From positions 1-64,000 of IMG/VR virus record IMGVR_UViG_3300045988_138952: a stretch of DNA of 64,000 bases; one strand, written 5' to 3'. The DNA is from a virus. This document shows positions 7,957 through 40,500 of this stretch, one piece after another (positions within the stretch are counted from its first letter, which is position 1; each line of letters starts with the position of its first letter). A program made the translations under genes and the position numbers. The notes below the pieces were generated by a model. It saw only the letters and a program-made list of their open reading frames with translations, had not been told where the DNA came from and ran no database searches.

Positions 7957-7957
7957 A

Positions 7958-23673: not shown

Positions 23674-23702
23674 GTGTTATTTTGAGTTTGTGTTGTAAAA
23701 AC

Positions 23703-23748
23703 AAAAAGAGCCAATCAACGGCATGCCCGTTAATCAGCTCTTTGGCTT
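23703..23748 (-). terminator. conserved late-leader terminator element, copy 1
   Basis: Minus strand CAAGCCAAAGAGCTGATTAACGGgcatgCCGTTGATTGGCTCTTTTTG, 30 nt upstream of the Dit ATG; near-identical flanks to 40158-40203. Confidence 0.6.
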
Positions 23749-23763
23749 GTTATATCAATACTG

Positions 23764-23771
23764 CAAATATA
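23764..23771 (-). promoter_or_regulatory. -7 promoter box TATATTTG (minus strand)
   Basis: Plus strand caaatata; about 16 nt upstream of the terminator element. Confidence 0.45.
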
Positions 23772-23851
23772 TGGTGTATTTTCTAAATAATCAAGTAAAA
23801 GGTTAGAAAATTGATATAGTTATCCGGCTTACATTATATTTGCAATGAATA

Positions 23852-24025
23852 CTACCTTTCGGGTGACACGATTTTCATGTAGGGGTTCTTTACCCGCTTC
23901 TCTTTGAGCTTCCTTTCAAGTTTTTCCATCCTTTCGTACATCAGTTCAATATCTTCGGATAAGTGCAATAATTGAAGTTTGAGGAGCTTGTTCTCTTTCT
24001 GCAAGTTATGTATCTTTTCTTCCAT
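23852..24025 (-). CDS. small coiled-coil protein (57 aa, below track cutoff)
   Basis: Hand translation MEEKIHNLQKENKLLKLQLLHLSEDIELMYERMEKLERKLKEKR... Confidence 0.35.
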   Translation of the reverse strand: MEEKIHNLQKENKLLKLQLLHLSEDIELMYERMEKLERKLKEKRVKNPYMKIVSPER

Positions 24026-24366
24026 GATGAATATTTGTTTTAGTCGTTATTCCTGCCATCTGCCCGCCAGCCGTATTACTGACGGGGTATCATAACGTGA
24101 ACGTTGGTCGAACCTCAACGTGCATCTATGCTAACATGTGGCAATATTTCCTTATTAAGGCTTCTAAGGTCGAAATCTGACTTAGAGGCGCTTGGGTTGT
24201 ATTTTGATATAGACATAGGGGCAAGAAGCGCCATTATTTCCAGCTTCTCCTGCTGTATATCGAGTATTACTTCATCCAGTATTTCTTAATTCTTCCATTT
24301 TCGTTTTGGATATAGTTGTGGCTGTCGGGCATTGGAACCGACTGCCGGATGATTAAAATAGCGTGA

Positions 24367-24684
24367 TTAGTATTTTTTCATGCAGCTAACGAATAAGGCT
24401 ATGATAGATATAAGGACGCCTACAATGGCAAGTATTAAATTCCAATTGATAGGATTGTGTAAGTTGGGGTTAACGGCAAGATAGTGCTTGCCCTCTTCGG
24501 TGAGTTTGACACTCCATACATAACCGCCAACCACATAATTGGCTTTCACCAATCCTTTCCTCTCAATGGAACGGATGGAAGCAGTAAATACATGCTTCGG
24601 GTATGTTGCCGGGCATTCTCCGCCAAACTCTGCAACAATCCGAAATGCTTGTTTCTCTTCCTTTGACAACCTTATCCGTTCCAT
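24367..24684 (-). CDS. membrane-anchored winged-helix-like protein (105 aa)
   Basis: Soluble N-terminal domain plus C-terminal TM LILAIVGVLISIIALFVSC. Confidence 0.5.
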   Translation of the reverse strand: MERIRLSKEEKQAFRIVAEFGGECPATYPKHVFTASIRSIERKGLVKANYVVGGYVWSVKLTEEGKHYLAVNPNLHNPINWNLILAIVGVLISIIALFVSCMKKY

Positions 24685-24744
24685 AACCTACTCGTTTTCT
24701 GCAAATTTACTAAATACTACGCAAATATGTGTTGTTGTGCTATA

Positions 24745-25509
24745 CTATTTTATAGGCGAAATCTTTCTGTCAGAAGGCTTTCCGCCAAATAGATGGTTGA
24801 TGTAGGCAAGACCTTTTGGTTTGCAAAACACCTTTTGGCATAATATGTCTGGGTGGTTGTCTCTGCGTATTGGCGGCAACAGCGTCATTTCAAAGTAGCC
24901 TGCGTCAATATACTTTTGTTTCGGTTCGTTCCTGTCTTTAAAGAATATGCCCGCATCCCTTAGCTTCCCGAAAAGGGTGTTCCTCCCAAAACCGAGATTG
25001 AGTATCTTTGCGGCTTGACCTATGTCTACTTTGCCCTCTGCTTTGAAAGCGGCTTCGGCAAAATCGGCTTTAGGCTGGAGTTTGGTAATCTTTGCATCTT
25101 TCTGCTCGATTTGCTTTTGTTGCTGCTCTGTTTCAATACGGAGTTGTTCCTTTTCCTTTTCAGAAGCTACTAACGCTTCCAATGCCTCAAGATAAGTTTG
25201 TGGAGTCTTGATAACTTTTTTCTCATTTTCGAGGTATTCTAAACGGTTGATTATTCTTTCGCGCAGAACCGCATCATAACCTGATGCAAGAATAAGACAA
25301 CCTTTAGGGGTGAGATTAAAACAAGGGCTTTGCCTATTAGATTTGTCAGTGTAAGAGGTCTCCACAAAATTGTGGGCAGCTACTCCTTGTTTGAGTAAGT
25401 TCCTGATGTCTCGTAAGATAGCATCATGCCTTTTACCCGTGACCTCTGCTATTTGAAGAGAGGTCATACCTTTCTGATTTGGAATTAACTCATTCGTTGT
25501 GTCAAGCAT
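24745..25509 (-). CDS. Rha-family regulatory protein fused to KilAC/ANT domain (second antirepressor-type gene)
   Basis: MTSLQIAEVTGKRHDAILRDIRNLL (Rha-like) and AAKILNLGFGRNTLFGKLRDAGIFF..YIDAGYFEM (KilAC-like). Start moved to internal ATG 25509. Confidence 0.8.
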   Translation of the reverse strand: MLDTTNELIPNQKGMTSLQIAEVTGKRHDAILRDIRNLLKQGVAAHNFVETSYTDKSNRQSPCFNLTPKGCLILASGYDAVLRERIINRLEYLENEKKVIKTPQTYLEALEALVASEKEKEQLRIETEQQQKQIEQKDAKITKLQPKADFAEAAFKAEGKVDIGQAAKILNLGFGRNTLFGKLRDAGIFFKDRNEPKQKYIDAGYFEMTLLPPIRRDNHPDILCQKVFCKPKGLAYINHLFGGKPSDRKISPIK

Positions 25510-25525
25510 ATTATAACGAATTATG

Positions 25526-25618
25526 ATAAAAAGAAACCCTCCGTAGGTGTGCTTGACACAACATACGCAGGGCATAGAAGTCGCAGATTGTTTCCTTTCT
25601 GCCACCTTAGAGGGTTTC
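25526..25618 (-). terminator. promoter-proximal long hairpin with T5 in the antirepressor leader
   Basis: Minus strand arms GAAACCCTCTAAGGTG / CACCTACGGAGGGTTTC followed by TTTTT; ends 17 nt before ATG 25509. Confidence 0.5.
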
Positions 25619-25685
25619 CCAATATCTTGTACAAAATTTGTTCGCTTTATTTTGCCCAAGAGTTATTATGTTGTATCAAGCACCG

Positions 25686-25693
25686 CAAAGATA
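25686..25693 (-). promoter_or_regulatory. -7 promoter box TATCTTTG (minus strand)
   Basis: Plus strand caaagata. Confidence 0.45.
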
Positions 25694-25823
25694 GCCCTTA
25701 TCTTTGAAATAGCAAACTTCTTATAAGAAAATTAATTAATTTCGTTTGTTTTCTAAGTTGTTATGCAAATATATAGAAAATTGACCGATTTGTCTAATTT
25801 AGTACATTATAAAAACAATAAAC

Positions 25824-26393
25824 ATGTTATATAACATGCTATATATAACGACAATGGATGTTAATAAAGAAGTATCTTTGCTACATGTTTTAATAAATAA
25901 TAAAAGTAGTATGGAAGATTTTATAATGGGACTTATTTACATCTTCTCATTTATATGGGGGATTCTTAGTATTATACTTTTCTTTAAAGTATGGGGAATG
26001 ACAAATAGGGTAATTGACATTCAAAATCTATTTGAAAAGCATTCTAAGAACGTTGATGATAAATTAGGGGTTTTGATTTCAACATTAGAAAAGATGAAAG
26101 AAATGCCAAAAATAGAATTAAATCCTAATAAAGTGGAAATAAAACAGCCGGAAGATTGTGAGGCAGATGTGGTTAAAAACACTAATATGAGTGTAAGAAA
26201 AAGAAGAGAAGCTAAAGTGTTGTCGCAAAAAATAGAAAAGGAAATTGATAAATCTTCTAATGAGTTTAAGCAAAAATTACATAAGTGGCAGGTTTTAAAA
26301 GAAAAAGGTTTTATAGAACAAGCTATTGAAGAATACCAAGAATATACAGGTCTTGATTATGATGAAGCTGTTGAATTTATTAAAGATTTGTAA
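25824..26393 (+). CDS. membrane protein, start uncertain
   Basis: TM LIYIFSFIWGILSIILFFKVWG then charged region; AT-rich island. Confidence 0.45.
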   Translation: MLYNMLYITTMDVNKEVSLLHVLINNKSSMEDFIMGLIYIFSFIWGILSIILFFKVWGMTNRVIDIQNLFEKHSKNVDDKLGVLISTLEKMKEMPKIELNPNKVEIKQPEDCEADVVKNTNMSVRKRREAKVLSQKIEKEIDKSSNEFKQKLHKWQVLKEKGFIEQAIEEYQEYTGLDYDEAVEFIKDL

Positions 26394-26423
26394 TTAGTAT
26401 TTATGTTTTAATTTTAGATTAAT

Positions 26424-27446
26424 ATGAGCCAAGAACAACAGAATAATGGTATGTCAGAAATTGGGGGTATAATATTAGGGGCAGGTATATTGATGGCAGC
26501 TATTGCAATATTTTCAGGTCATTATATTTTAGGAGGGGCTTTAGGAGGGGTTGCTATTGCCATATCTAAGGCTGTGAGTAAATCAGATAATGAAAAAGAA
26601 AGAGAAGAAAGGCAACAAGAATTGCGAAGAAAAAAAGAATTGGAAGATGAAAAAAGAAAGGAAAAGGAAGAAGCAGAAAAAGAAGAAAGAATAAAAAAAT
26701 ATGGTGAAATATCTTATGAATATCAGTCCAAATGTCCGTATTCCAAAATAGAGGTGTATGAAGCAACCAAAGTTGTATATCTTAAATATGGAGAAGAAAC
26801 ATGGATGTTTAATTTCTCTGATGTCATAAAAGTAGATATATATGAGGACGGACGAATTAGTTCGTCTACTACTTCTGCAAGCGGGACTTCAAAAGCTAAA
26901 ACCTCAAGCATGCTGGGTAGGGCGGCCGTAGGAGGTGTACTTTTAGGCGGCACAGGAGCGGTAATCGGAGGGGCTACAGGTAAAAGAGGGATTGAAGGAA
27001 CTTCTACTACAAAAACGCAAGAAGTGGTTATTTACTCAATGGTTATAACGATTAACAACCTATCAATGCCAACCATTCAAATAAAAGCGAAGTATGAAGA
27101 AGCCAAAGAGTTTATAAAGAGAGTAAGTTCCATATTGTCTATCATAATAGAAAGGCAAGATAAAGATGCTGACGACGATGCTAAAATACAGATATTACAT
27201 GAGGGGAATGAATATTCAGAAGTGAATATTGATATATTAAAATTATTATCTGATACTTATGGGGAAGGTAGAATAAAAGGCCTACCGAAAGCTCTTGAAT
27301 TGTACAAAGAAAAAGTAAACAAAGATGGTTCTAATTTTACTGAATATTTGGAAGAAATAGTGACATTAGATGATGAGATATTGTCGAATAACGAAAAGAA
27401 TGTTTTATTGTCTGATATATCATTTATAAAACGCATGAATAAATAA
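26424..27446 (+). CDS. membrane protein with Glu/Lys-rich coiled coil and glycine-zipper segment (340 aa)
   Basis: N-terminal TMs, EKEREERQQELRRKKELEDEKRKEKEEAEKEE, then GRAAVGGVLLGGTGAVIGGATG. Confidence 0.55.
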   Translation: MSQEQQNNGMSEIGGIILGAGILMAAIAIFSGHYILGGALGGVAIAISKAVSKSDNEKEREERQQELRRKKELEDEKRKEKEEAEKEERIKKYGEISYEYQSKCPYSKIEVYEATKVVYLKYGEETWMFNFSDVIKVDIYEDGRISSSTTSASGTSKAKTSSMLGRAAVGGVLLGGTGAVIGGATGKRGIEGTSTTKTQEVVIYSMVITINNLSMPTIQIKAKYEEAKEFIKRVSSILSIIIERQDKDADDDAKIQILHEGNEYSEVNIDILKLLSDTYGEGRIKGLPKALELYKEKVNKDGSNFTEYLEEIVTLDDEILSNNEKNVLLSDISFIKRMNK

Positions 27447-27475
27447 ATGTTTTGTATTTAATATCACATCAAGTC

Positions 27476-27504
27476 AAGCGGAGTTTCTCCGCTTTTCTTG
27501 TTTT
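27476..27504 (+). terminator. intrinsic terminator
   Basis: AAGCGGAG-ttt-CTCCGCTT followed by a T-rich tract. Confidence 0.6.
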
Positions 27505-27598
27505 GTGGCATATCGCTTGTTCTACCGATTATGGTAATAATTGCCACAATATTATAAATATGAGAAAGCATGGGAAAAAGTCAAAAGACATCCAAGCA

Positions 27599-27991
27599 CT
27601 ACGCAGACCGAACATCGTCAGAGAAAGAAATAGGCAGCATCGCTAAAATCTTTTTCGTAAGAAACTCAATTAAGTAGGAATAAGCTTCGTCACTATCACT
27701 GGTTAAGTTTATTCCTGCTTTTTCCAATGTAAAGTTGGCGATGTGAAATATCTCGTGCGCTAATATTGACAATCCTTTTATGTCTTTCGGCAAATTTGGC
27801 ATATACAAAATCATTTGTCCGCCAGGCAATAAAAAACTTTTTCCCTTTTCTTCTCCACTAATCATAGAAACGATTTCAGAAGACTTCTCGCACCCGAATA
27901 TCTTTGATAGTCTTGCCTTCAAATGCTTTTTTTCTCCAAAATGAACCATTACATCCCGGTCATAAATGTCTATGCTTATTATCTTATTCAT
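27599..27991 (-). CDS. small HExxH metallopeptidase-like protein (130 aa), paralogue of 6727-7149
   Basis: HEIFH motif followed by an ..EAYSYL.. segment, which aligns by eye with HEKGH..EEAQYLSGY. Confidence 0.55.
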   Translation of the reverse strand: MNKIISIDIYDRDVMVHFGEKKHLKARLSKIFGCEKSSEIVSMISGEEKGKSFLLPGGQMILYMPNLPKDIKGLSILAHEIFHIANFTLEKAGINLTSDSDEAYSYLIEFLTKKILAMLPISFSDDVRSA

Positions 27992-28154
27992 AACGAATAT
28001 GATGTTTGTGCTTTATATATAATAATGCAAATATAACTAAAAATAATCAAGATGCTGTTCTTCGGCATATGAATTATAATTAATCGGATTTGTTAAAAAG
28101 CTGATTTATCGGATATTTATTTGTTTATTTGTTTGTTCTTTCGTTCGTTCTTTC

Positions 28155-28162
28155 TATATTTG
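28155..28162 (+). promoter_or_regulatory. -7 promoter box TATATTTG
   Basis: Exact TAnnTTTG 19 nt upstream of ATG 28181. Confidence 0.4.
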
Positions 28163-28180
28163 TGCATTAATATAATACAA

Positions 28181-28423
28181 ATGGGTAATTGGAGTGAAAG
28201 GCAAGAAGTAAAGAAAGAGGGCAAGGAAAAGGATAAGGTAAGACGTGAAAAACTTGCAGGATATTTCTTTGATTTATCTAAACTAATATTTGCGGCACTT
28301 GTTTTAGGAGGTATAACTCCTTTGTTTACCAATGTGACAAACGGAATAAACTGGAGTACTATTACATTAGGAACTATATCTACATATATGTTTGCTAACT
28401 TTGCTAATAGGATTTTAAAATGA
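28181..28423 (+). CDS. small membrane protein (80 aa)
   Basis: Lys/Glu-rich N-terminus then two hydrophobic segments. Confidence 0.5.
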   Translation: MGNWSERQEVKKEGKEKDKVRREKLAGYFFDLSKLIFAALVLGGITPLFTNVTNGINWSTITLGTISTYMFANFANRILK

Positions 28424-28430
28424 ATATAAT

Positions 28431-28535
28431 ATGGATACGCTAACGGCAATATTTTTAATAACGGCTATTGTGAGTGTTACATTAGTTGTTTGGTCTCACA
28501 CCAAATCGGGCAAGAAGTGGCTTGCAAGCTTGTAA
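28431..28535 (+). CDS. 34-aa single-TM peptide
   Basis: Hand translation MDTLTAIFLITAIVSVTLVVWSHTKSGKKWLASL. Confidence 0.3.
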   Translation: MDTLTAIFLITAIVSVTLVVWSHTKSGKKWLASL

Positions 28536-28581
28536 GCAGAAGGATAAAAAAGGGAACAGATAAATTCAATATCAAAACAAT

Positions 28582-28782
28582 ATGGAGAGTGTAATGGAAA
28601 GCAAGAAAGCAAAGTGTTCTTCAAAGCATCCACACCGTATAAAGTCTAAAGGCGATAGACTGGGATGGACGTTGAGAAGCGAAGTCAAGCACTCTTCCTT
28701 GCGTGAAATTATCGGAGAGGGAAGAATCGTTAGTAACTCTTGCTGTTTCATTTCAGCCAATACAAAAAGAATTATGCAATAA
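28582..28782 (+). CDS. small basic protein (66 aa)
   Basis: Track ORF followed by hairpin AGCCAG..CCTGGCT plus T-run at 28782-28810. Confidence 0.3.
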   Translation: MESVMESKKAKCSSKHPHRIKSKGDRLGWTLRSEVKHSSLREIIGEGRIVSNSCCFISANTKRIMQ

Positions 28783-28791
28783 AGCCAGACA

Positions 28792-29298
28792 TTAAGCCTG
28801 GCTTTTTCTTTGCATGACATCCCCAGCGGTTTCCACAATACAATCTTCTCCATGAATGTAAACATATACCGATGCTATATCCTTTTGGATAACATTTACT
28901 TTTGCCCGGTCGTACACGTTAATGAATACCTTGCAATACTGTGAACAGTCAATGGTTACTTCGCTGTCATGGCGCACGTAAATATCACATACGGAAAAGC
29001 CATCAAATAGGAGAGTACCTTTACAATTTCCGTTCAAAACAGAAATTTGTGACATGTTGCGTTTCTGCACATCTTCATCCACAAAAATATTATTCTTGTG
29101 GAGAAGGTCTTTGTCGAAGTGTTCTTTTATGAAAGTGTTGGTAGGGTAATTGTGCTTAATGGCAAAATCAATCCCATGCAGATACTTGTCAATTAATCCT
29201 TGTTGGGTAGGATTCCCCCATGCGTGTTGCCACGGTTGGCATAAACCAAACGTAATAGCTTGGTTCAGTAATGTTTTGCTTAAATCCTTTTCGTTCAT
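28792..29298 (-). CDS. hypothetical protein downstream of tape measure (168 aa)
   Basis: Track ORF, 6 nt after the tape measure stop. Confidence 0.55.
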   Translation of the reverse strand: MNEKDLSKTLLNQAITFGLCQPWQHAWGNPTQQGLIDKYLHGIDFAIKHNYPTNTFIKEHFDKDLLHKNNIFVDEDVQKRNMSQISVLNGNCKGTLLFDGFSVCDIYVRHDSEVTIDCSQYCKVFINVYDRAKVNVIQKDIASVYVYIHGEDCIVETAGDVMQRKSQA

Positions 29299-29304
29299 AA
29301 CATA

Positions 29305-32300
29305 TTATATTTTGATTTTTCTACCACTTCTGTCTATTACTATACTTAGCATATCTCTAACTTCTTGTACTAAAGCAACGTTTGCTTCGGTATTTTGGGC
29401 ACTTCTTAACGTATTATTGGCTATCGCCCTCAATTGAGTAAGTTGTTGTTCGGCTATAACATTATATTTCGGAAGAATCTCGTTTCCCCACTTTTCAAGC
29501 AAAGCGCGTTTTACACTTACATCTGCACGAATACCGTTTATGTAAGAAGCTAAAATATTGGCGGTTTCTTCTGTAATGTTTTCTTGTATCCCTTTGGAAA
29601 GAGTGTTTGAAGCGCTTGTCTCTTCAAGGCTTATTCCCATTTTTTTTGCAGCAGCATTTAGATAATCCCATATTTTCTTTGAGTCTGATATTGTCCCTCG
29701 AAGGCTTCCAAGTTGCTGCATTAGTCCGGTAGCCTCTTGTTCCGTCAGATTTGTACCCCCAGCGGAACTGTCTGTAAATATACCTTTATCTCCAAACAGA
29801 TAATCTCTTAGCTTATTCATGGCAGGTTTTATGACATTCAGAGAAATCATCTCCTTTATGACATTGCGCATTATATCAGCCACCGTATCATCAAAAGCCT
29901 TTGCTGCATCTTCTCCGTTGGCGAACGCATTGACTAACGCTTCTGATATTTGGTCTGACCATCCCTTTAAGTCTATACCGAATTGTTCGCTTGCCAAATC
30001 TTCATAGAAATACTTGATTTGCTCGCCTAACTCGATATACTGCTGCTTGTAGTCCTCTATTTTAGAAGCATCCGAATCTTTCTTGTCTTGTTCCGCCTTC
30101 ATTTGCTTTTGCACCTCTTCTTGTTGCTTTTGAAGATTTGCAATCATCTCTTTGGATTGACTTTGGGTAACAGCACCCAATTGCCGTTCTATGACAGATT
30201 GAAGGTTCTTATAGTCGTTGGAAAGCTTTTTCACTTCCAGTTGCGAACGTTGGATTGCTTTATCCAGCTTCTTGTCATGGGCTTTGGCTATGCTTCCTAT
30301 TATTCCGGTAATACCGCTGACTACACCTGTAGCCCCTTGCATGATAGCCATCGGATTGCCGGAAGATATACCAGCGAAAAGGGTAGCTCCGCTTTGAGCT
30401 GTATTCAATAATCCACCCGCAACTTCTTGTACAGCGCTTAGAGTGTCTCCCATACTATCATTCCCTAAGGCATCAAATGCTGACCCTAAATCTCCCAAAG
30501 TGCCGATAAGAAGATTAGCCATGTCGACAATATCTCCAAAGCCTACTTGAACTTTATCGGAAGCCTCATTTTGTTCATCCTGCGCATCTGTTACTTCTTT
30601 TTCCGCATCTGCCAACGTTTTTAATTTTGGAGTTAATTTATCGACGACTTTAGCCTGATAAGATAAGCCGCCATCCGTTTTCTTGGTTTCCGTATGGCTC
30701 GTTTCAGAAACACCAGTAGTAACTTCACCGCCATCCTGGATAAACCCAAGTTCTTTTTGAGCCTTTTTCAGTTTTTCAGTGGCTTCCGCATACTCTTTTA
30801 TTCCGTCTGATAATGTCTTGAAAGGGTTTCTGCTTTCACTTTCGTCACGTAGCTTTTTTAATACATTGACAAGCTCTTTAAACTCGTTGACTTTTAGACT
30901 TTGCCCGGTCGTATTTTTAAACTCTTCCAGGTTCTTGATTAGCCTGCTAAGAGTTGCAGAAGAAAGTCTGTCAAGGTCGTCAAAGGTCTTAGCCCAGTCT
31001 TCCGAACTCTTGAATTGTTCAAATTTGGTAGATGCAGCATCTTCGCTCGCTTTCTTTTTCCTTTGTGCTATAAGTCTGTCGGTCGCTTCTTCGCCTAATT
31101 GACCTCTTTGGCTTTCAATATCTGCCAAGTCTTTTTGAAGATTACGTTCAATATCCTTTATCCTTTGGGCATAATCTTTATAATCCTCAATCATGCCTAA
31201 AAGGTTTTCAAGGCTTTCTGAACGCATTTTCTTACTTTCCTCGTTGATTGATTGGTATAGTTTCAGAATTACTCCTTCTCCAAACTGCTTCTTTACATCA
31301 TCCTCTTTCATGGCAAGGACATCTGTAACGGAGAATTTACTTCCTGTATTTTCAAGCGCTTTGGAAAGTTGGTTGCGCAAATCATCTACTACACTTTTGA
31401 ATGAGACCTCTCCGCCGAAAGCGATGTTCATGGAAAGAGATTTGTTGCCGGAAGCATTGAATAGCTTCTTATATAAATCCCACTTTTCTCCGGTTTGGGA
31501 AACGTACTTCTCTATCTCCTTTAAGGCATTATCTACTTCTTTCTTCGCACTGTCAATTCCCGCCTTGTCAATCTTGACACCAAGAGAAATGTATAAATCT
31601 TCCTGCTTCTCTTTGCTTCGGTCTAACTGCCCTTGAATGTATTTGTAAGCCTTGCTTGGGTCTTTTAAGTCCAAATTGACCCCGTTCTTATCAAAGATAG
31701 GGGCAAATTCAGAAATGCCCTTCACCCTTTGGGATGCGACTTCTTCTCCTTCTATCTTTCTCCATTTCTCATAGCTGGAAACGGCTTTATCTATGAGGTC
31801 GGTACGGGCTTCCCATTGTTCGGCAATAGGGTCTTTCGTGTTTTGGGTCTCTTTGGTTACACGCCCGAATGTTTTTAGTATTTCATCTGTAGCATTCTTT
31901 AACAGCTTGGCTTTATCTATACTTTTACGAGTTTCTTCATTCCATTCGCCCTCTTTTTTAGTCCATTCGCTAAGAGTAGAGGACGCATCCTCATTAGCAC
32001 CGATTATATTTTCTATGTATTTTTGCAGACCACCTTCTGCATCAGGCTTTAGCCTTTCTATACCGAATTTTTCATACAATTCGGTCGCTTTCTTGAACCA
32101 GGCAGAATTCTTGTCATCTTTCTTTATCTTGTAAGTTGAATAATTTTCTAATGCGTCATTCAGTGTTTTTTGAGCTTGCGATAAAACCTCTTCTTGTTTT
32201 TTTATATCTTCATCTAAGGACTCTATGACATTCTCATACCCGTCCAGTGATTGATAATATTCTCTGCGAGATTTCAATCTGTTAAGTTCTCTTTGAGCTT

Positions 32301-34152
32301 CATTTCTATTATTGGTCGCGCCGATTACAAGCCCTGCGCTTTTGACTTTTTCTCTTTCTTTTGATGCAGATAACACTTTTTGGATGGCTTGATATTCCCC
32401 TTCTAAAAGAAATTGTTCAAATTTCATATTCTCAAAGAGAGAGGGATATATTTTTTGAAGGTTTAGATATGCCCTTCTTTGAGCATCAATCCCGTTTGTT
32501 TTATCGAATATTCGAGAAATATATCCTTTAGCCTTACTTTCCTCTTCTTTAATCTTCTCTATGTTTTTTGAGAACTCAATATTTAGTTTTTTTGTTTTTT
32601 CAGCAACTGTTTCAACTTTTTCTTGGAATACAGTCAATGTTGTAACTATAGCGCCTAATGTGGTTATCCAAAATACCCACGGATTGACTTTCATTGCTGA
32701 GTTAAGTGCCCATTGTGCTACTGCGGCTGCTTTGGTGACTTTGACTCCTTTGTTTAACCATGTATAATACGCTTGCATTTGACTGATTGCAAAAGAAGAC
32801 TTTTGTGCTACATTTACAGCTATCACAGCCGTTTTATAAGAGCCATAAATTCCTACAAGTCTACCAAGTATATCTGCGACAGCCTCCCAATGTTTCATTA
32901 AATCAGTAAGCAGCTCTAAACTATCTGAAAGTACACCGCTATTGCCTTCCGCAATGTCAGCCATCATGACATCCCATGCGTCCTGCAAGTTGCTCCATTT
33001 GCCAGCAAGGCTTTCTGCAAGAGCTTCCTGCATGTTGTAGAATTTGCCGCCTTCATCGGTCAGCTCCCAAAGAACATCTTTCACCATGCCGAAGCTGACC
33101 TCTTTCCGGCTGATTTTATCGAATACGTCTCCGGCGGAAGTTACCACTCCCGTAAGCTTAGTAAACCGTTTCGCCAACTCGTCCACCAACGGAATACCAG
33201 CCTCGGTAAACTGCCTCAATTCCTGCCCACGGAGAAAAGCTGCACTGCGCACCTGCCCGTACGCCAATATGATACGTCCCATATCGACACCCACACCTGC
33301 GGAAATGTCGGCAAGTCGTTTGGTCGTATCGTAAAGCTCTTCATACGGAATGCTGTATGCGGAAAGTTGCTTGGTGTATGAAGCCAGTTCTTTAAACTGA
33401 AACGGAGAGACAACCGCTAAATCCTTAATGCGGTTGAATATGGTTTCCGCCTTCATACTATCTCCAAGAATGGAGGTAAGGGCAATGTGTTGTTTCTGAA
33501 ACTCTCCGCCAATAGTATATAATCCCCTTACAAAACGCTCTATGGTGTATATGGAATACACATTGGCGATTTGATTTTTCAATTCCCTGGCTATCCGTGA
33601 TTGAGAAGATAGAGCCGTGTTTTCCTTTGTCATGGCGGCATTGTGTGTGCCGGAAGCTCTTGCAGCCTGCATCCGAGCATTGGTGAGTCTTTGTTCGGCG
33701 AGCGCTGCCCTTTCTGCCATTTTTGCCTGAATATCAAGAATGCGTTGCTGTCTTACATCGCTCGCTGTTGTGTTATATTTATATCCAGCTTTTTGTAATG
33801 CCTGTTTGACGGCATCACTGACTTTAGCCTTATCTACGACTATGTTTATTTTGTATTTTTTCTTATTTACAGCACTGGATATACTATCTCTAAGAGAAGC
33901 ATCGTCTATTTTCAGTTTTGCTTTAACTTCGGAGGGAATGTTAATTTTATTGACCCCTACATTGACTTTGAATATCTTACTTTTAAGTGCATTGTCTATC
34001 GACTCTCTAATAATTTGTCTGTCTACCTTAACTCCCAATTTAGTGTTAAGTTTGACTTGCTTTTCAACGAGTTTCTTTTTTATCTGTTCATAATCCTGCT
34101 CCGTGCAGTCTTTCAAGTGAACGCTAAAATTGAGTGAACCTAAGTCTGCCAT
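29305..34152 (-). CDS. tail tape measure protein (1615 aa)
   Basis: Length, long helical/coiled-coil composition with hydrophobic core segments, position after the chaperone pair. Confidence 0.9.
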   Translation of the reverse strand: MADLGSLNFSVHLKDCTEQDYEQIKKKLVEKQVKLNTKLGVKVDRQIIRESIDNALKSKIFKVNVGVNKINIPSEVKAKLKIDDASLRDSISSAVNKKKYKINIVVDKAKVSDAVKQALQKAGYKYNTTASDVRQQRILDIQAKMAERAALAEQRLTNARMQAARASGTHNAAMTKENTALSSQSRIARELKNQIANVYSIYTIERFVRGLYTIGGEFQKQHIALTSILGDSMKAETIFNRIKDLAVVSPFQFKELASYTKQLSAYSIPYEELYDTTKRLADISAGVGVDMGRIILAYGQVRSAAFLRGQELRQFTEAGIPLVDELAKRFTKLTGVVTSAGDVFDKISRKEVSFGMVKDVLWELTDEGGKFYNMQEALAESLAGKWSNLQDAWDVMMADIAEGNSGVLSDSLELLTDLMKHWEAVADILGRLVGIYGSYKTAVIAVNVAQKSSFAISQMQAYYTWLNKGVKVTKAAAVAQWALNSAMKVNPWVFWITTLGAIVTTLTVFQEKVETVAEKTKKLNIEFSKNIEKIKEEESKAKGYISRIFDKTNGIDAQRRAYLNLQKIYPSLFENMKFEQFLLEGEYQAIQKVLSASKEREKVKSAGLVIGATNNRNEAQRELNRLKSRREYYQSLDGYENVIESLDEDIKKQEEVLSQAQKTLNDALENYSTYKIKKDDKNSAWFKKATELYEKFGIERLKPDAEGGLQKYIENIIGANEDASSTLSEWTKKEGEWNEETRKSIDKAKLLKNATDEILKTFGRVTKETQNTKDPIAEQWEARTDLIDKAVSSYEKWRKIEGEEVASQRVKGISEFAPIFDKNGVNLDLKDPSKAYKYIQGQLDRSKEKQEDLYISLGVKIDKAGIDSAKKEVDNALKEIEKYVSQTGEKWDLYKKLFNASGNKSLSMNIAFGGEVSFKSVVDDLRNQLSKALENTGSKFSVTDVLAMKEDDVKKQFGEGVILKLYQSINEESKKMRSESLENLLGMIEDYKDYAQRIKDIERNLQKDLADIESQRGQLGEEATDRLIAQRKKKASEDAASTKFEQFKSSEDWAKTFDDLDRLSSATLSRLIKNLEEFKNTTGQSLKVNEFKELVNVLKKLRDESESRNPFKTLSDGIKEYAEATEKLKKAQKELGFIQDGGEVTTGVSETSHTETKKTDGGLSYQAKVVDKLTPKLKTLADAEKEVTDAQDEQNEASDKVQVGFGDIVDMANLLIGTLGDLGSAFDALGNDSMGDTLSAVQEVAGGLLNTAQSGATLFAGISSGNPMAIMQGATGVVSGITGIIGSIAKAHDKKLDKAIQRSQLEVKKLSNDYKNLQSVIERQLGAVTQSQSKEMIANLQKQQEEVQKQMKAEQDKKDSDASKIEDYKQQYIELGEQIKYFYEDLASEQFGIDLKGWSDQISEALVNAFANGEDAAKAFDDTVADIMRNVIKEMISLNVIKPAMNKLRDYLFGDKGIFTDSSAGGTNLTEQEATGLMQQLGSLRGTISDSKKIWDYLNAAAKKMGISLEETSASNTLSKGIQENITEETANILASYINGIRADVSVKRALLEKWGNEILPKYNVIAEQQLTQLRAIANNTLRSAQNTEANVALVQEVRDMLSIVIDRSGRKIKI

Positions 34153-34153
34153 G

Positions 34154-34917: not shown

Positions 34918-34980
34918 ATTGTGTTATTGTGATGTGTGAAAAAGGAGAAGGCGGCGGCAATAACGCACACCGCCATATTT

Positions 34981-35801: not shown

Positions 35802-35832
35802 AATAAATAGTTTTAATCGTTTTATTTTATGT

Positions 35833-36237: not shown

Positions 36238-36238
36238 A

Positions 36239-36781
36239 TCATTTCATTGGTTTAAAGGTCATTTTAGCAATGCTTTCCGCGTAATCAAATGTATCTGACA
36301 ATACATTTAACCCCTTCTTTGACTCCAAGTAGTTAGAATATTCCGTACCTGTACACATCACTAATCCTATGCCGTCACTTGGAGTTTTATATGCTTTGAG
36401 GAAATTTACAGAAGTGGTTAAACCGTACTCCCCGTTGGTGTCAACCAAGTTGTATTTTTTTATGGGAATAAACTTACCACTTTCGTAACTTTGGACCATT
36501 ATCACGCCAATACCGTCTCCTCTGCTAAGCTTGGGGCGGGTGGGATTTTTTAATCCTTGTGTCACGACGGCGGTAATTATACGAGATAACCCACCTCTAT
36601 AATAAATTCCAACAGCTAATGAAGTTAGAGTATTTCCGGTTACATTATGGTACTTGGCTGATACTACTCCGTCTTGCAGAAGTCTGATTCCGATTTCTGT
36701 TATTCTATCCAGCAAATATTCATCAATGATATTTCTCATCTTTTTTTTGCCTTCTTCCAAGACTTTAGCATTATCTCCCAT
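36239..36781 (-). CDS. head-tail connector protein (by position)
   Basis: 180 aa, tight spacing. Confidence 0.45.
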   Translation of the reverse strand: MGDNAKVLEEGKKKMRNIIDEYLLDRITEIGIRLLQDGVVSAKYHNVTGNTLTSLAVGIYYRGGLSRIITAVVTQGLKNPTRPKLSRGDGIGVIMVQSYESGKFIPIKKYNLVDTNGEYGLTTSVNFLKAYKTPSDGIGLVMCTGTEYSNYLESKKGLNVLSDTFDYAESIAKMTFKPMK

Positions 36782-36785
36782 TTCC

Positions 36786-37109
36786 CTAATTCTTAGCCAG
36801 ATTGAAATACAGCGTTGTTCCCATTTCCGTAGGATAACAATCCGTTACTACGCATGATTCAAAACTTCCTCCGTAATCGGTAACATCCACAAGGTCTCCC
36901 GCAATGATACCCTTCACAAGTCCAGGAATGTCTATTGCATAATCACTCTTTATGACATTACTTTTTGTAAATGTCCTAAGACTTGTGCTTCCGTACTTGT
37001 TGCATTTCCCTACATACAATACGGTCTCGTTCCCTTCGTCAAAAGATGTTTCTCCGGAAATACGATACACTTTGCATGTATGCGGAAAACGTGGATTATT
37101 TACTTTCAT
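36786..37109 (-). CDS. head-tail connector protein (by position)
   Basis: 107 aa, overlapping the start of the neighbouring gene. Confidence 0.45.
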   Translation of the reverse strand: MKVNNPRFPHTCKVYRISGETSFDEGNETVLYVGKCNKYGSTSLRTFTKSNVIKSDYAIDIPGLVKGIIAGDLVDVTDYGGSFESCVVTDCYPTEMGTTLYFNLAKN

Positions 37110-37507
37110 AGCGGATACCTTTTATTCATGTTCATACCCAAGTTGACAATTCTGACAGATGATTTACGGACGTTCTCTCCATACAATGCGTATATGTCAT
37201 TTGCCATTTGCCGAAGGTTACGTTTGTCATAGGCAGAGCTTTGTGTACCACCCTCCTTGTGCTTCCATACACCATTGGCATCCTCTACGCTTCCAGTTAC
37301 GCTCGGTGTACTTGCGCACCACATATAAAGGTCTGCCCGGCACAAGTCTTTCTGGCGTTTTTCCAACGTGCTGACATCCGTCCCCGGTGCAATTCCCCTG
37401 TCAATCAGTATGGTGGAAATAGCACTGTCCGTAACTTCAAAACCGACACAACCACGGAGATATTCCTCTATGGTAGTGCCAGTATTTGTATTTTGAGAAT
37501 CCTTCAT
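37106..37507 (-). CDS. head-tail connector protein (by position)
   Basis: 133 aa, directly after the capsid gene. Confidence 0.45.
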   Translation of the reverse strand: MKDSQNTNTGTTIEEYLRGCVGFEVTDSAISTILIDRGIAPGTDVSTLEKRQKDLCRADLYMWCASTPSVTGSVEDANGVWKHKEGGTQSSAYDKRNLRQMANDIYALYGENVRKSSVRIVNLGMNMNKRYPL

Positions 37508-37509
37508 GG

Positions 37510-38715
37510 TTATTTACCTTTAATGTTCAAGTAGTAGAACCAGCGAACCTTATTAGGAACAACCAATCCGGTCACTTCTGATTTGATTACCTGCGTCATG
37601 GTTTCATCATTGAATACCTGACGTATCAGAGTGCGGCCGCCGTCATACAATGCCGTACGGGCACCCGGTGTTTCCATGAAAATAGGACGTCCACATTGTA
37701 CATCACCCAGGTCTTCATTTGGAACATATGCCAATACTCCCTCTTCAAAGCTTTGCAAATTCTTGTATTGTATAGCTTTGGAAGATTTGTCATATTTCTC
37801 CACTACGGATATTGAATCGACAATTCTGATTTCAGCACCGATACGCGTTTCAATGAAAGTTTTGATTGTTTCATCGGGGACAAGATTAGCAAATGCCAAC
37901 TGCATGCCTTTATCGGAAATATCCGGGCGTGTCGCAACTGTGTACATTTGGCGGAAATACGGAAGGTTAATCAAATCCTCAAAGGTCGTCTTGGAGCATT
38001 CCCAGTGACCAGCAGGGGCAAAATCCTTTTCTTGGGAATCGCGTCTTACCTGCCTCATGACTTTTATCGGGTCTATTGTAGTACCCAAAGCTTCTTTCTG
38101 CACCGCTTCGCTTTCCGGCTTCTTATACCAGATAGAATCCTTGATATTCTTTTTAGGCACACCGAAATCTATAGTCAATGCAATGCCAAGCGGGTTGTTA
38201 GCTGCGTCAATGATTAGCTTACCTTTGTTGGATACAACTTGATTTCGTTGGTATAGGAATGTATTGTAGTTACCACCAAGTAAGCTGTCCACTCCATTAA
38301 ACAGAAGCTCCATTATTGTAGACTCAATTTCCGGAGTGGTACTGCCGATGGCATCCATCAGCATCATTTTTTCTCTTAGGATTTTGCGGCTCAGTACAAT
38401 CTCATGCTTGAAGGTTGGCAATCCACCCATTTGCAGGGACATTCCGTCTGTAGATTTGGTTGCACCATCACTGTCAATATCCACATAGGTAGCCAGCGTG
38501 TATGCACGGACTGTTGCTTCTATCTGCTCATATGTGGGATTCAGAGGAATATTAGGATTTAACGGGAAACCCATTTGGGAGAACGTTTGTTCCGCATTGT
38601 ATTTTTCGGCAAACATGTCATTAATCCATGCTTCCAGCGGTTTATTCCCAGTATATCCCAATGCTGCAAGACCTTTCCCTACAATGTCGTAAAATTCTTT
38701 GTTTCTTGTGTACAT
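37510..38715 (-). CDS. major capsid protein (lambda gpE-like class suspected)
   Basis: 401 aa, preceded by decoration-like and scaffold-like genes. Confidence 0.75.
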   Translation of the reverse strand: MYTRNKEFYDIVGKGLAALGYTGNKPLEAWINDMFAEKYNAEQTFSQMGFPLNPNIPLNPTYEQIEATVRAYTLATYVDIDSDGATKSTDGMSLQMGGLPTFKHEIVLSRKILREKMMLMDAIGSTTPEIESTIMELLFNGVDSLLGGNYNTFLYQRNQVVSNKGKLIIDAANNPLGIALTIDFGVPKKNIKDSIWYKKPESEAVQKEALGTTIDPIKVMRQVRRDSQEKDFAPAGHWECSKTTFEDLINLPYFRQMYTVATRPDISDKGMQLAFANLVPDETIKTFIETRIGAEIRIVDSISVVEKYDKSSKAIQYKNLQSFEEGVLAYVPNEDLGDVQCGRPIFMETPGARTALYDGGRTLIRQVFNDETMTQVIKSEVTGLVVPNKVRWFYYLNIKGK

Positions 38716-38730
38716 ATTATTCTCCTTTCT

Positions 38731-39450
38731 TTATTCGTCAGATTCACGCACAAATTCAATCATAGGCAGCTGTGCTTCTACCGATTTGGGAATGCCACCA
38801 CCGAACACCCTGTCTGCGTAAATTCTGCCTGCGCGTACAACTGCGCATGTTGCAAGGATACAGCCTTCAGGGATACATACGTCTTCAAATACAAGGCCGT
38901 TGACATCGGTTAGCTTTCCGCTGGCGGGAACTCCTTTGACAGTTTCCTCAATATCTCCCGTTACTCCGGTATTTCCTGGAATAAACATGTACGCGTAAAG
39001 TTGCGCAGCGGTTTTTTGTGTGAAAGTCACAGTAGCCCCACTACGTTTTACATCCCATTCTGCAAAAGAAGATTTTGCTCCTTCGATTTTGGTAGCTACC
39101 AGTTCTGGGGTACTTTCTGATGCGCTTGTTACGGCAACCGAATAGCTTTTTCCGCCTAACACAATAGACAAATCCCCGTTTCCGGATGCCTTTTTAGTGA
39201 TAGTAAGCGTCACTACTGCCTTTACATCAGTCACTCCATCTGCTGTAATTACCTCTACCTGTTTGCCTGCTCCATTGAATTTTACCATTGTGCCGGCATG
39301 TATAATATCACCAGGCTTTAATCCCATTCCGGCGACATCAATCATACCACCACCCTGATATAATTCTCTTACTCTTGACCAAACAGGAAAATTTCCGCCA
39401 AATCCCGACTGGGATTGACTGATAGTGTTGAAAGTTCCTAATTGTCTCAT
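38731..39450 (-). CDS. head decoration-like protein with inserted beta domain
   Basis: Position directly before the capsid gene; Gly-rich N-terminus; tentative. Confidence 0.4.
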   Translation of the reverse strand: MRQLGTFNTISQSQSGFGGNFPVWSRVRELYQGGGMIDVAGMGLKPGDIIHAGTMVKFNGAGKQVEVITADGVTDVKAVVTLTITKKASGNGDLSIVLGGKSYSVAVTSASESTPELVATKIEGAKSSFAEWDVKRSGATVTFTQKTAAQLYAYMFIPGNTGVTGDIEETVKGVPASGKLTDVNGLVFEDVCIPEGCILATCAVVRAGRIYADRVFGGGIPKSVEAQLPMIEFVRESDE

Positions 39451-39471
39451 TCTTTGTCTGTTTTAATGTGT

Positions 39472-40134
39472 TTATTGTTTTCGAGGAAGTTTTCCTTGCG
39501 CTCTTAGCCGGTCTTTGAATGCTTCACGGCGGCTTTTTGCCTGTTCTTCTCCGGTTTCTGCATATTGGTTGATACTTGGGGAAGCGCCATTCCCGAAAAT
39601 TGCCTTGTATCTTTTTTCATAATTGCGTTTGGCGCAACTGACAATTTCTTCCACTTCCATATCTTTGGTAATTTTCACGTCAGATATGGCGATATTCAGG
39701 ATTTCATCGTTACAGATATTTTTGCCCCCGTTTTCAATTTGAGATTTCAACAAGTCCATAGACTGGACTTTTAAGTCATTGATTGACGCGGCGTTTTTCT
39801 CCACCTCTCTCTCTTCCTTCAAAAGCAAAATCTCATTTTCCATTTCCTTTAGCTTGTCGGCAAGGACGTTATCTCCTGCTCCTTCTCCTGAGTCAGGAGA
39901 ACTCTGTTGAGGTTTGTAGTTTTTCTTAAAACTCTCAACTTGTGTTGCGACATCGTGATTGTACTGCCCTTGCATTCCTTGAAGAAAAGATGTCGCCTTG
40001 CTATAATAAGCGTCATCAGGCTCCACCCCTTCTGCTACCGGATTCAATTCTATGTACTTCATTAATGTCTGTGACGAAAGACTGGTTTGTCCTAATCTGG
40101 TCGTCAGTTCGGATAAGATTTGTTCTTTCTCCAT
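39472..40134 (-). CDS. scaffolding protein
   Basis: 220 aa, helical and charged, first gene of the capsid block. Confidence 0.55.
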   Translation of the reverse strand: MEKEQILSELTTRLGQTSLSSQTLMKYIELNPVAEGVEPDDAYYSKATSFLQGMQGQYNHDVATQVESFKKNYKPQQSSPDSGEGAGDNVLADKLKEMENEILLLKEEREVEKNAASINDLKVQSMDLLKSQIENGGKNICNDEILNIAISDVKITKDMEVEEIVSCAKRNYEKRYKAIFGNGASPSINQYAETGEEQAKSRREAFKDRLRAQGKLPRKQ

Positions 40135-40157
40135 CGTGTTTATTTAGTTTGTGTTAT

Positions 40158-40203
40158 AAAAAAAAAGAGCCTATCAGTGCTTTGTGCACTAATAAGCTCT
40201 TAG
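40158..40203 (-). terminator. conserved late-leader terminator element, copy 2
   Basis: Minus strand CAAGCCTAAGAGCTTATTAGTGCacaaaGCACTGATAGGCTCTTTTTTTTT, 24 nt upstream of the scaffold ATG. Confidence 0.6.
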
Positions 40204-40222
40204 GCTTGCATATGTAAAATTG

Positions 40223-40399: not shown

Positions 40400-40418
40400 A
40401 TCACATGATTTAGTATTG

Positions 40419-40426
40419 CAAATATA
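40419..40426 (-). promoter_or_regulatory. -7 promoter box TATATTTG (minus strand)
   Basis: Plus strand caaatata, 20 nt upstream of the Com-like ATG. Confidence 0.45.
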
Positions 40427-40500
40427 TAGTATATTTTCTAAAATACAATGCTTTATATGTATTTTTATATGAGAAATATTAGAAAATTTATAATAAATCG

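Follow-up and report, generated by a model that had tools for sequence, protein, structure and literature searches.

In the late region of a temperate Bacteroidales phage, two nearly identical hairpin sequences lie just in front of two blocks of virion genes, one preceding a Dit-like tail block and the other a scaffold-like gene and the head/tail block. This raises the question of whether they are ordinary transcription terminators or a dedicated RNA control point at the entry to the late genes. A sequence-only reading had proposed the latter, describing a conserved leader-terminator element of about 50 nt with a compensatory stem change. In order to answer this question, we analysed the window, a stretch of 64,000 nucleotides (positions 1 to 64,000 of IMG/VR record IMGVR_UViG_3300045988_138952), together with related phages and prophages.

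Two late-leader hairpins in the window

We first examined the two sites and their surroundings. The features to which the text refers are as follows.
23692..23755, minus strand: type-I late-leader element, copy 1, before the Dit-like tail block; AAGCC box 23748..23744 (CC at 23745-23744), GAG 23740..23738, hairpin 23743..23705, U-run 23704..23694
23759..23787, minus strand: putative promoter of copy 1, TTTAGAAAATACACCATATATTTGCAGTA, with a Bacteroidetes-type -7 box TAnnTTTG at 23771..23764
23203..23673, minus strand: first gene downstream of copy 1, a 156-aa protein ('Dit' by position only), followed by a 1409-aa tail protein (23203..18974)
40151..40214, minus strand: type-I late-leader element, copy 2, before the scaffold-like gene and head/tail block; CC 40204..40203, GAG 40199..40197, hairpin 40201..40165, U9 40164..40156
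40223..40399, minus strand: 58-aa C4 zinc-ribbon gene (CPVCGQKL...CRRCRN), remotely Com-like, the first gene of the head operon, upstream of the terminator-like element
40414..40442, minus strand: putative promoter of the zinc-ribbon/head operon, the same box as copy 1
39472..40134, minus strand: first structural gene downstream of copy 2, 220 aa, scaffold-like by position, followed by the major head protein at 38715..37510
40501..40586, plus strand: type-II leader of the TerL-portal operon; -7 box 40501-40508, AGAGCT box 40526-40531, hairpin 40539-40577 (AAGCCGG...CCGGCTT), U8 40579-40586, ATG 40587
48529..48588, minus strand: weak third type-I-like hairpin with a CC-UAC-GAG foot, a 14-bp stem and U6, upstream of an AT-rich repeat region and the primase/helicase operon

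The observation of two conserved elements was confirmed. Both sequences are present as described, although the coordinates originally given were off by 2-6 nt, and the 45-mers run from 23705-23749 and 40164-40208 on the plus strand. On the minus strand, copy 1 reads CAAGCC-AA-AGAGCUGAUUAACGG-GCAUG-CCGUUGAUUGGCUCU-UUUUUGUUUUU, where the stretch from AGAGCUGAUUAACGG to CCGUUGAUUGGCUCU is the hairpin, and copy 2 reads CAAGCC-UA-AGAGCUUAUUAGUGC-ACAAA-GCACUGAUAGGCUCU-U9, where the hairpin spans AGAGCUUAUUAGUGC to GCACUGAUAGGCUCU. Both are hairpins of 16-17 bp followed by U-runs (U5GU5 and U9). The upper-stem change from ACGG/CCGU to GUGC/GCAC is compensatory, as had been proposed, and a further position changes from G.U to U-A. 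The two copies form one repeat family of the window, and their similarity is larger than first described, since it runs on through the U-run to the ATG (ACAACACAAACUnAAAUAACAC-AUGG). The promoter box is duplicated as well, with 23787..23759 and 40442..40414 being 90% identical, and these are the only two full matches of the extended motif in the window.

The stem ends 31 nt (copy 1) and 30 nt (copy 2) before the ATG, and the TATATTTG box ends 14 nt before CAAGCC in copy 1. In copy 2 the zinc-ribbon ORF lies between promoter and element, and its stop is 21 nt before the hairpin and 17 nt before the CC box. The names 'Dit' and 'scaffold' are positional only; neither protein gave a family hit, and the 156-aa protein, for which we found 113 homologue clusters, gave no hit in Pfam or PHROG. 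The major head protein matches phrog_29.

To assess the structure, both elements were folded as RNA. The minus strand gave -26.2 and -23.9 kcal/mol with z scores of -5.3 and -6.0, and 0 of 200 shuffles were as good. The plus strand gave z scores of only -1.5 and -1.6, because the G.U pairs become A.C mismatches. The two sites were the top terminator-like sites of their 20-kb regions, and a stable stem followed immediately by a U-rich tract is what is expected of an intrinsic terminator; RNA 3' ends at the U-tracts were not mapped. A covariance model scored copy 1 at 77 bits (E 4e-16) and copy 2 at 68.4 bits (E 5e-14) on the minus strand, against 28 and 18 bits on the plus strand. It found no other strong hit in the window and none at E <= 0.01 in 843 kb of unrelated viral contigs, which excludes chance. 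A search of Rfam returned no matching family: the only window hit at or above the gathering threshold was c4-2 at 25530-25619, and E-value scans of both sites gave only noise.

The window holds more leader hairpins than the two first noticed. The TerL operon carries its own class (type II, z -4.2), whose layout also occurs before TerL in 8 relatives but which lacks the CC-N-GAG foot. The third type-I-like hairpin, at 48.5 kb, is weak (18.2 bits, E about 0.1); it was also picked up by the terminator scan and is conserved in close relatives.

Conservation and covariation in related phages

Conservation in relatives and recovery by a covariance model had been set out in advance as tests of the idea, and both came out in its favour. 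The element occurs before the homologous late genes in LoVEphage, Dulem virus 40 and well over 100 Bacteroidales prophage or virome loci, and is conserved in relatives down to about 34-40% identity of the downstream protein. The model recovered it only at the entry of late structural operons: 2 hits in LoVEphage, before Dit and before scaffold; 3 in the rearranged Dulem virus 40, before Dit, the TMP-like gene and scaffold; and one per locus right upstream of the Dit homologue in 48 of 53 loci and in 75 of 80 metagenome loci. A clade of more distant relatives (loci L488-L492) has the promoter but no hairpin before the Dit homologue. In the Dit copies of many lineages a TAnnTTTG box lies 19-30 nt upstream of the hairpin, although promoter activity was not assayed.

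Across 27 distinct copies, 96.5% of cells are paired and 10 of 16 pairs show double, compensatory changes. The covariation score was 0.58 against 0.19 for shuffled alignments (0 of 500 shuffles reached it), and slid controls gave at most 56% paired. U.G pairs occur in 18/27 copies at two positions and fix the strand. A DNA site without any RNA role had been named as an outcome that would overturn the proposal; the covariation and the strand-specific G.U pairs argue against a purely DNA-level site.

While the upper stem covaries freely, the stem foot (AGAGC/GCUCU) and an unpaired 5' AAGCC box stay invariant, giving CC-N2-5-GAG in 31/31 distinct copies, each of which is followed by a U-run. In whole-genome scans this foot appears at all three such sites in the window, at two of the three model hits in Dulem virus 40 and at one of the two in LoVEphage, plus one spurious 9-bp site inside the window's TerL. 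Other terminators of the same genomes do not share it. The invariant foot and box argue against a generic terminator.

A remotely Com-like zinc-ribbon gene beside the element

The label 'Com-like', given to the small gene by the sequence-only reading, gained support. The SELEX-defined RNA motif of phage Mu Com is 5'-CC(N)2-3GAG-3', with the native site GAAUGCCUGCGAGCAUCCC (PMC6483171), and the invariant bases of the element resemble it. The spacing is 2-3 nt in 13 of the 31 copies but 4 nt in 17 and 5 nt in one, outside the range defined for Com, so that the comparison does not settle whether this is the Com motif. With only 5 fixed bases, a chance match to a pre-existing conserved box is also possible (roughly a few percent).

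The zinc-ribbon family hits phrog_6417 ('translational regulator') in 9/9 members (best E 5e-5), Mu Com hits the same family at 2.8e-10, and both also hit phrog_5602. An hhalign comparison aligns the four Cys residues with those of Mu Com at E 1.3e-3 but with a probability of 18%, and a JGI record names one homologue 'phage FluMu protein Com'. However, Mu Com's own PHROG (13819) and the Pfam Com family (PF10122) are not hit, with only sub-threshold generic zinc-ribbon models appearing. The AF2 model is a predicted zinc ribbon (pLDDT 83), for which a fold search returns only generic zinc ribbons. Homology to Com is therefore weak, and these searches leave membership of the Com family undecided.

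In 108 homologue clusters the order is always TerL<-|->Zn-ribbon->(tRNAs)->element->scaffold, and the zinc ribbon lies directly upstream of the element in all relatives examined, sometimes with tRNAs between. The order is kept down to 34-46% protein identity, in Paraprevotella, Bacteroides and lemur-gut phages.

Interpretation

Our findings support the interpretation that the element is a dedicated antitermination or RNA-binding control point rather than a generic terminator. The best explanation, which we hold to be about as likely as not, is that it is a cis-acting RNA in the leader of each late structural operon of a LoVEphage-like temperate phage. In this view it is a strong intrinsic terminator, a 15-18 bp hairpin plus a U-run, whose 5' foot carries the fixed recognition sequence AAGCC-N2-5-GAGC, with CC unpaired and GAG forming the lowest base pairs next to the U-run. 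Transcripts from the late promoters would stop at this hairpin. In the head operon, the part of the transcript before it encodes the Com-like protein and, in relatives, also carries tRNAs. Once accumulated, this protein would bind CC...GAG on the nascent RNA, as Mu Com binds its motif, and keep the foot of the stem from pairing, so that RNA polymerase reads through into the scaffold/capsid/tail genes. The same would happen in trans at the Dit-block copy, and at a TMP-block copy in Dulem virus 40. What the analysis establishes is the sequence, structure, strand, covariation, conservation and position of the element, its synteny with the zinc-ribbon gene and the motif match, whereas termination, protein binding and read-through are inferred, there being no transcript data. 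If the late promoters are constitutive, a regulator encoded upstream of its own terminator would always be on, and the model therefore also needs promoter control. Tentatively, a Com-family zinc-finger protein would act as a sequence-specific transcription antiterminator, holding open the foot of dedicated leader terminators in front of every virion-gene operon and forming a self-priming late switch in phages that are among the most prevalent temperate phages of the human gut.

Other explanations appear unlikely, but are not excluded. The same protein-RNA pair might work as in Mu, remodelling the leader to activate translation of the first late gene or to stabilise its mRNA, with the hairpin and U-run being incidental or merely ending the upstream zinc-ribbon/tRNA transcript. 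Com is an established translational activator acting on an adjacent hairpin (PMC6483171), the order regulator-site-target mirrors com-mom, the A/C-rich leader between U-run and ATG is also conserved between the copies, and in several relatives the ATG lies only 12-17 nt after the U-rich tail. However, the start codon is not sequestered in the window, the sequence between stem and ATG being unstructured; the U-run is kept in every copy; and the Dit copies sit directly after a promoter, where a strong terminator would block the gene whatever happens to translation. It is equally doubtful that the element is an unregulated leaky terminator, attenuator or 5' stabiliser, which insulates the late operons from upstream transcription (cargo and immunity genes, tRNAs) and sets a fixed read-through level or protects the mRNA 5' end, its conserved bases reflecting shared ancestry or terminator efficiency and not a binding site. 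The cargo region with the c4-2 RNA and antirepressor does lie just upstream of the Dit copy, tRNA arrays lie just upstream of the scaffold copy in LoVEphage and Dulem virus 40, and an A-rich 5' flank paired with the U-run is a common terminator feature. Against this, the promoter lies between the upstream genes and the hairpin, not after it, and the unpaired box and the AGAG foot are invariant across lineages in which the rest of the stem has turned over completely.

A somewhat less likely possibility is that the element is a loading or recognition site for a different antiterminator, such as a Q-, N- or put-like processive system, a phage factor outside the window or a host factor such as a NusG paralogue, the zinc ribbon being unrelated. 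A late promoter followed by a terminator is the logic of lambda pR'-tR', there is one element per operon start, and the window does not hold the whole early region. Yet no Q, N, sigma or NusG-like family was found among about 50 window ORFs scanned with Pfam or PHROGs, although the window may not hold the entire phage. The scaffold copies lie 0.2-1 kb from the promoter, after the zinc-ribbon gene and tRNAs, which does not fit promoter-bound Q loading, and the synteny with the zinc ribbon is strict. It is very unlikely that the short promoter-to-terminator transcript (about 60-70 nt at the Dit copy), or a processed 3' fragment at the scaffold copy, is itself a small RNA with the AAGCC box as its seed. 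A single-stranded conserved 5' box followed by a terminator hairpin is the usual sRNA layout, but no target complementarity was identified, and the element always abuts the first late gene, leaving no room for a separate promoter for that gene. Least likely of all is a DNA-level operator bound by a repressor or activator: the inverted repeat AAGAGC...GCTCTT is near-perfect at its outer ends, but the G.U pairs make it imperfect as DNA, the inner arms change sequence freely while keeping pairing, and the U-run is invariant.

Comparison with known systems

The closest known systems include com-mom of phage Mu. In both, a small C4 zinc-finger gene lies immediately upstream of, and on the same transcript as, its known or proposed RNA target, and a CC-N-GAG sequence (GCC-UGC-GAGC in Mu, GCC-AAA-GAGC here) adjoins a hairpin that gates, or here is proposed to gate, the downstream gene. 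What differs is that the hairpin here has the form of a canonical intrinsic terminator and not of a start-codon-sequestering structure, and that in Mu the motif controls translation, not termination. The motif sits at the single-strand/stem junction of a long hairpin, with the start codon 30-31 nt downstream of the stem and unpaired, rather than in the loop of a small hairpin, and its spacing is mostly 3-4 nt. There are 2-3 targets per genome, in front of structural operons rather than a DNA-modification gene, the hosts are Bacteroidota and the protein similarity is remote.

In lambdoid late control a late-operon promoter (pR') is likewise followed closely by an intrinsic terminator (tR', giving 6S RNA) that must be overcome for virion gene expression, and a short terminated leader transcript is expected. 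However, Q loads through a DNA site at the promoter and a sigma-dependent pause, tR' has no conserved recognition sequence and no Q homologue was found here among the about 50 window ORFs scanned, whereas the conserved sequence of the present element is in the terminator-like RNA itself and also occurs far from the promoter. In protein-dependent leader antitermination (BglG/SacY/LicT-RAT, HutP, ANTAR), an RNA-binding protein recognises a site overlapping the 5' half of a leader terminator and prevents its formation, as proposed here. Those systems stabilise an alternative antiterminator hairpin, while no conserved alternative pairing was found here, the only candidate being broken in one of the sequences compared (L203); the protein families are unrelated, and those operons are metabolic and not phage late genes. 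Lambda N-nut (boxA/boxB) and HK022 put also place a conserved RNA element, a single-stranded box plus a hairpin, at the start of each regulated phage operon, but nut and put are not terminators themselves and act processively on downstream terminators, whereas the element described here is followed directly by a U-run.

The two leader elements and their context

In order to confirm the two elements picked out by the sequence-only reading, we searched the window for both sequences and found that both are present, so that the observation itself holds, although their true spans are 23705-23749 and 40164-40208. Read on the minus (coding) strand, copy 1 is CAAGCC-AA-AGAGCUGAUUAACGG-GCAUG-CCGUUGAUUGGCUCU-UUUUUGUUUUU and copy 2 is CAAGCC-UA-AGAGCUUAUUAGUGC-ACAAA-GCACUGAUAGGCUCU-U9. 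As minus-strand RNA they fold at -26.2 and -23.9 kcal/mol (z -5.3 and -6.0), whereas as plus-strand RNA the z-score is only -1.5 and -1.6, because three G.U pairs become A.C mismatches. They are the best terminator-like sites in their 20-kb regions and together form a repeat family (D4) of the window. The similarity between the copies extends further than had been described, since it runs on to the ATG. The promoter box TTTAGAAAATAnAnnATATATTTGCA is duplicated as well (repeat family D19) and occurs in full only at these two places.

The window is a temperate Bacteroidales siphovirus. ORF prediction together with Pfam, PHROG and Rfam searches gave the following features, in which the names 'Dit' and 'scaffold', also used in the sequence-only reading, are positional only.

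40587-42200 (+): TerL, with the portal gene on the same strand
Divergent on the minus strand: zinc-ribbon ORF, scaffold-like gene, major head protein and head-tail genes
34152..29305 (-): tape measure
Cargo region of roughly 5 kb: a Rha/ANT antirepressor and an Rfam c4-2 RNA
24745-25659 (-): the Rha/ANT antirepressor ORF
25530-25619 (-): the c4-2 RNA (43.7 bits, above gathering), directly upstream of the antirepressor
'Dit' gene of 156 aa, followed by a 1409-aa tail protein
Further on: integrases and a CI-like HTH protein
59221-59634: a tandem repeat with 12- and 18-nt periods (about 20 copies), inside ORF 59246-60019
60692-60777 and 61181-61266: an 86-nt direct repeat, 86% identical, 489 nt apart in the early region

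The c4-2 RNA and the antirepressor make up a P1 immI-like module inside the variable cargo region that splits the tail genes. The TTG start of the antirepressor ORF overlaps the RNA, so the true start is probably near Met51. The junction between the tape-measure block and the Dit block is a hot spot for variable cargo, including reverse-strand genes (23750-29300 in the window, 6830-10000 in locus L214 and 3216-10000 in locus L248). In locus L129 the two blocks are adjacent, yet the promoter and the element are still present. The nearest named relatives are Bacteroides phage LoVEphage, BI-TP1, PV4-TP1 (52% on 'Dit') and Dulem virus 40 (39%).

Conservation of the element in related phages

Conservation in related phages, and recovery by a covariance model (CM), had been named in advance as tests of the element. 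The exact motif occurs at least 116 times in IMG/VR viral contigs, but only as 6 distinct cores, all from near-identical phages, and these were of no use for covariation. A first scan anchored on the Dit-like protein (113 clusters) was likewise swamped by close relatives. Re-ordering the alignment so that a distant homologue came first solved this, and recovered prophages in Bacteroides, Phocaeicola, Dysgonomonas and other Bacteroidales, together with virome and metagenome contigs. Upstream of the homologue the layout is kept almost everywhere, namely a TAnnTTTG promoter, 19-30 nt, an AAG(G)CC box, a 15-18 bp hairpin beginning AGAGC, a U-run and the ATG. One distant clade (loci L488-L492) has the promoter but no hairpin; whether it also lacks the zinc-ribbon gene was not tested. 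A scan with a 15-mer (AAGCCACAAGAGCTT), which served as a negative control, returned only chance matches, with 0 CM hits in 100 loci. The searches with the CM, which was built from 13 copies, bear out the conservation of the element.

Table. Hits of the covariance model, by search space
Window: 2 strong hits, 77 and 68 bits; the same sites score 28 and 18 bits on the other strand
53 related loci: one hit (46 bits or more) directly before the gene in 48
80 metagenome loci: one hit per locus in 75
LoVEphage: exactly 2 hits, before Dit and before scaffold
Dulem virus 40 (late genes in three separate blocks): 3 hits, before Dit, the 2045-aa TMP-like gene, and scaffold
843 kb of unrelated viral contigs: no hit

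The element also bears on the annotation of LoVEphage (L290 36439-36495; LoVEphage record 70795-71475). The annotated start of its scaffold-like CDS (71475) lies inside the element and its annotated TerL start (1207) lies inside the TerL leader hairpin, and both starts are probably annotated too far upstream.

Covariation of the stem and invariance of its foot

To determine whether pairing is maintained, we analysed an alignment of 27 distinct copies. Standard pairs are formed by 96.5% of cells, and 10 of 16 pairs show changes on both sides. The covariation score is 0.58 against 0.19 for shuffles (0 of 500 reach it), and slid controls give at most 56% pairing. U.G or G.U pairs dominate three positions, which fixes the functional strand as the late-gene transcript. 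By contrast, the lowest pairs (AGAGC/GCUCU), the unpaired AAG..CC box and the U-run do not vary. This is selection on an RNA hairpin, plus selection on specific bases at its 5' foot, and a generic terminator does not need the second kind of selection. The sequence-only interpretation, that the element is a dedicated control point and not a generic terminator, is supported in this respect.

Pairing of the 5' box with the 3' arm (GCCAA/UUGGC versus GCCUA/UAGGC) looked like covariation between the two window copies. Locus L203 and the L127-type copies break it, and it was therefore rejected as an antiterminator structure. GCUCUUU resembles the boxA core; it lies in the paired 3' arm, Bacteroides boxA was not examined, and the resemblance was not pursued.

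The zinc-ribbon gene upstream of copy 2

The 58-aa ORF between the promoter and copy 2 has 108 homologue clusters. In every context examined the order is TerL<-|->zinc ribbon->(0-8 tRNAs)->element->scaffold. This holds for LoVEphage, Dulem virus 40, loci L285-L288, and loci L493-L496 down to 34-46% identity, including a Paraprevotella clara prophage, and the element keeps AAG(G)CC-N-GAGC...GCUCU-Un throughout. The tRNA arrays of LoVEphage (8 genes, L289 17-858) and Dulem virus 40 (2 genes, L292 about 33500-33690) are inserted between the zinc-ribbon gene and the scaffold-copy element, in the part of the late head transcript that precedes the terminator-like hairpin.

Pfam, NCBIfam and PDB searches with the zinc ribbon gave only sub-threshold generic zinc-ribbon matches. 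In PHROGs, all nine tested members hit phrog_6417 'translational regulator' (best E 5e-5) and phrog_5602, and Mu Com hits the same two families (2.8e-10 and 0.008), besides its own phrog_13819. hhalign aligns the four cysteines of the family profile with those of Mu Com (E 1.3e-3, probability 18%), which leaves it undecided whether the protein belongs to the Com family. The AF2 model is a four-stranded zinc ribbon (pLDDT 83), and a BFVD fold search with it was not discriminating. 'Com-like' is thus a remote, moderately supported relationship. No Q, sigma or NusG-like gene was found among the about 50 window ORFs searched, and the window may not hold the entire phage.

Comparison with the Com RNA site

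SELEX and footprinting defined the Com RNA site as 5'-CC(N)2-3GAG-3', and the native Mu site is GAAUGCCUGCGAGCAUCCC, 14 nt before the mom start (PMC6483171). The invariant bases of the element are exactly CC and GAG. All 31 distinct copies carry CC-N(2-5)-GAG, with a spacing of 3 in 12 copies, 4 in 17, 2 in one and 5 in one, so that the copies are divided over whether they fall within the Com definition. GAG forms stem pairs 2-4. The core in Mu is GCC-UGC-GAGC, as compared to GCC-AAA-GAGC and GCC-UAA-GAGC in the window. Among hairpin-plus-U-run sites of the three complete or near-complete genomes, this foot occurs at covariance-model hits and at one weak third site.

Other leader hairpins in the window

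The weak third site is a type-I-like hairpin, resembling the class of copies 1 and 2, and the TerL-portal operon was found to have a leader of its own. Their parts are as follows.

40501-40586 (+): leader of the TerL-portal operon
40501-40508 (+): promoter (-7 box)
40526-40531 (+): AGAGCT box
40539-40577 (+): 39-nt hairpin AAGCCGG...CCGGCTT, followed by U8 abutting the ATG at 40587
48529-48660 (-): two consecutive hairpins after a TAnnTTTG-like box
48588..48529 (-): the weak third type-I-like hairpin, upstream of the replication module
48574..48543 (-): the stem-loop of this same hairpin, which is the second of the two, with U6 and a CC-UAC-GAG foot
48159-48284: iteron-like repeats in an AT-rich region

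The same layout as in the TerL leader (AGAGC box, N3-8, hairpin, U-run, ATG) precedes TerL in eight relatives, namely LoVEphage, Dulem virus 40 and loci L285, L286 and L493-L496. These hairpins are too heterogeneous in length to model with one CM, and none was built. All three late operons begin with a promoter-proximal terminator-like hairpin. The hairpin with the CC-UAC-GAG foot is a weak CM hit (18 bits), is conserved in close relatives, and lies upstream of the AT-rich region and the D5_N primase/helicase operon.

Discussion

Almost nothing is known about how Bacteroidota phages time their late genes, and Bacteroidota promoters and translation signals differ from the E. coli paradigm. The element gives a concrete and testable control point in a phage group reported as the most common inducible prophage in gut viromes (PMC12629997), and it also gives annotators a marker for the start of late operons in these phages.

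An intrinsic terminator needs its stem to close right up to the U-tract. A protein holding CC...GAG single-stranded would therefore prevent the last pairs from forming and allow read-through. In this view the regulator, which is encoded before the terminator of the head operon, can be made from terminated transcripts, and can then open its own operon and, in trans, the other copies. The tRNA arrays in the same pre-terminator segment in LoVEphage and Dulem virus 40 fit an 'early-late' segment. While the hairpin, its strand, its placement and its fixed foot rest on the sequences analysed, all of this mechanism is inference. It is weakened by the remote protein homology, the 4-nt spacing in most copies, the different structural context of the motif compared with Mu, and the need for additional promoter control. 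If the Com-like protein does open these terminators, the Com family would be extended from a single-gene translational activator in Mu to a regulator of whole late regulons acting on transcription, a new RNA family would be defined for Rfam, and a compact protein/RNA switch would become available for Bacteroides genetic engineering.

Other explanations have to be weighed against this hypothesis. A duplicated DNA site without an RNA role had been put forward beforehand as an outcome that would count against an RNA element, and such a DNA operator is disfavoured by the strand asymmetry and the covariation. An unregulated attenuator, insulator or 5' stabiliser is also possible, although an insulator is disfavoured by the promoter lying upstream of the hairpin and by the invariant unpaired box. 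Translational activation of the Mu kind is disfavoured by the free start region, but it cannot be excluded. The element may also serve a different antiterminator, or be part of a small RNA.

We found no Rfam family for the element, and the LoVEphage literature examined does not mention it and contains nothing on promoters or terminators. The parts are of known kinds, a leader terminator and a Com-type site, whereas the combination, the regulon-like distribution and the host phylum are new. The proposed logic resembles that of lambda pR'-tR'/Q, and the proposed molecular mode resembles RAT-type antitermination and Mu Com.
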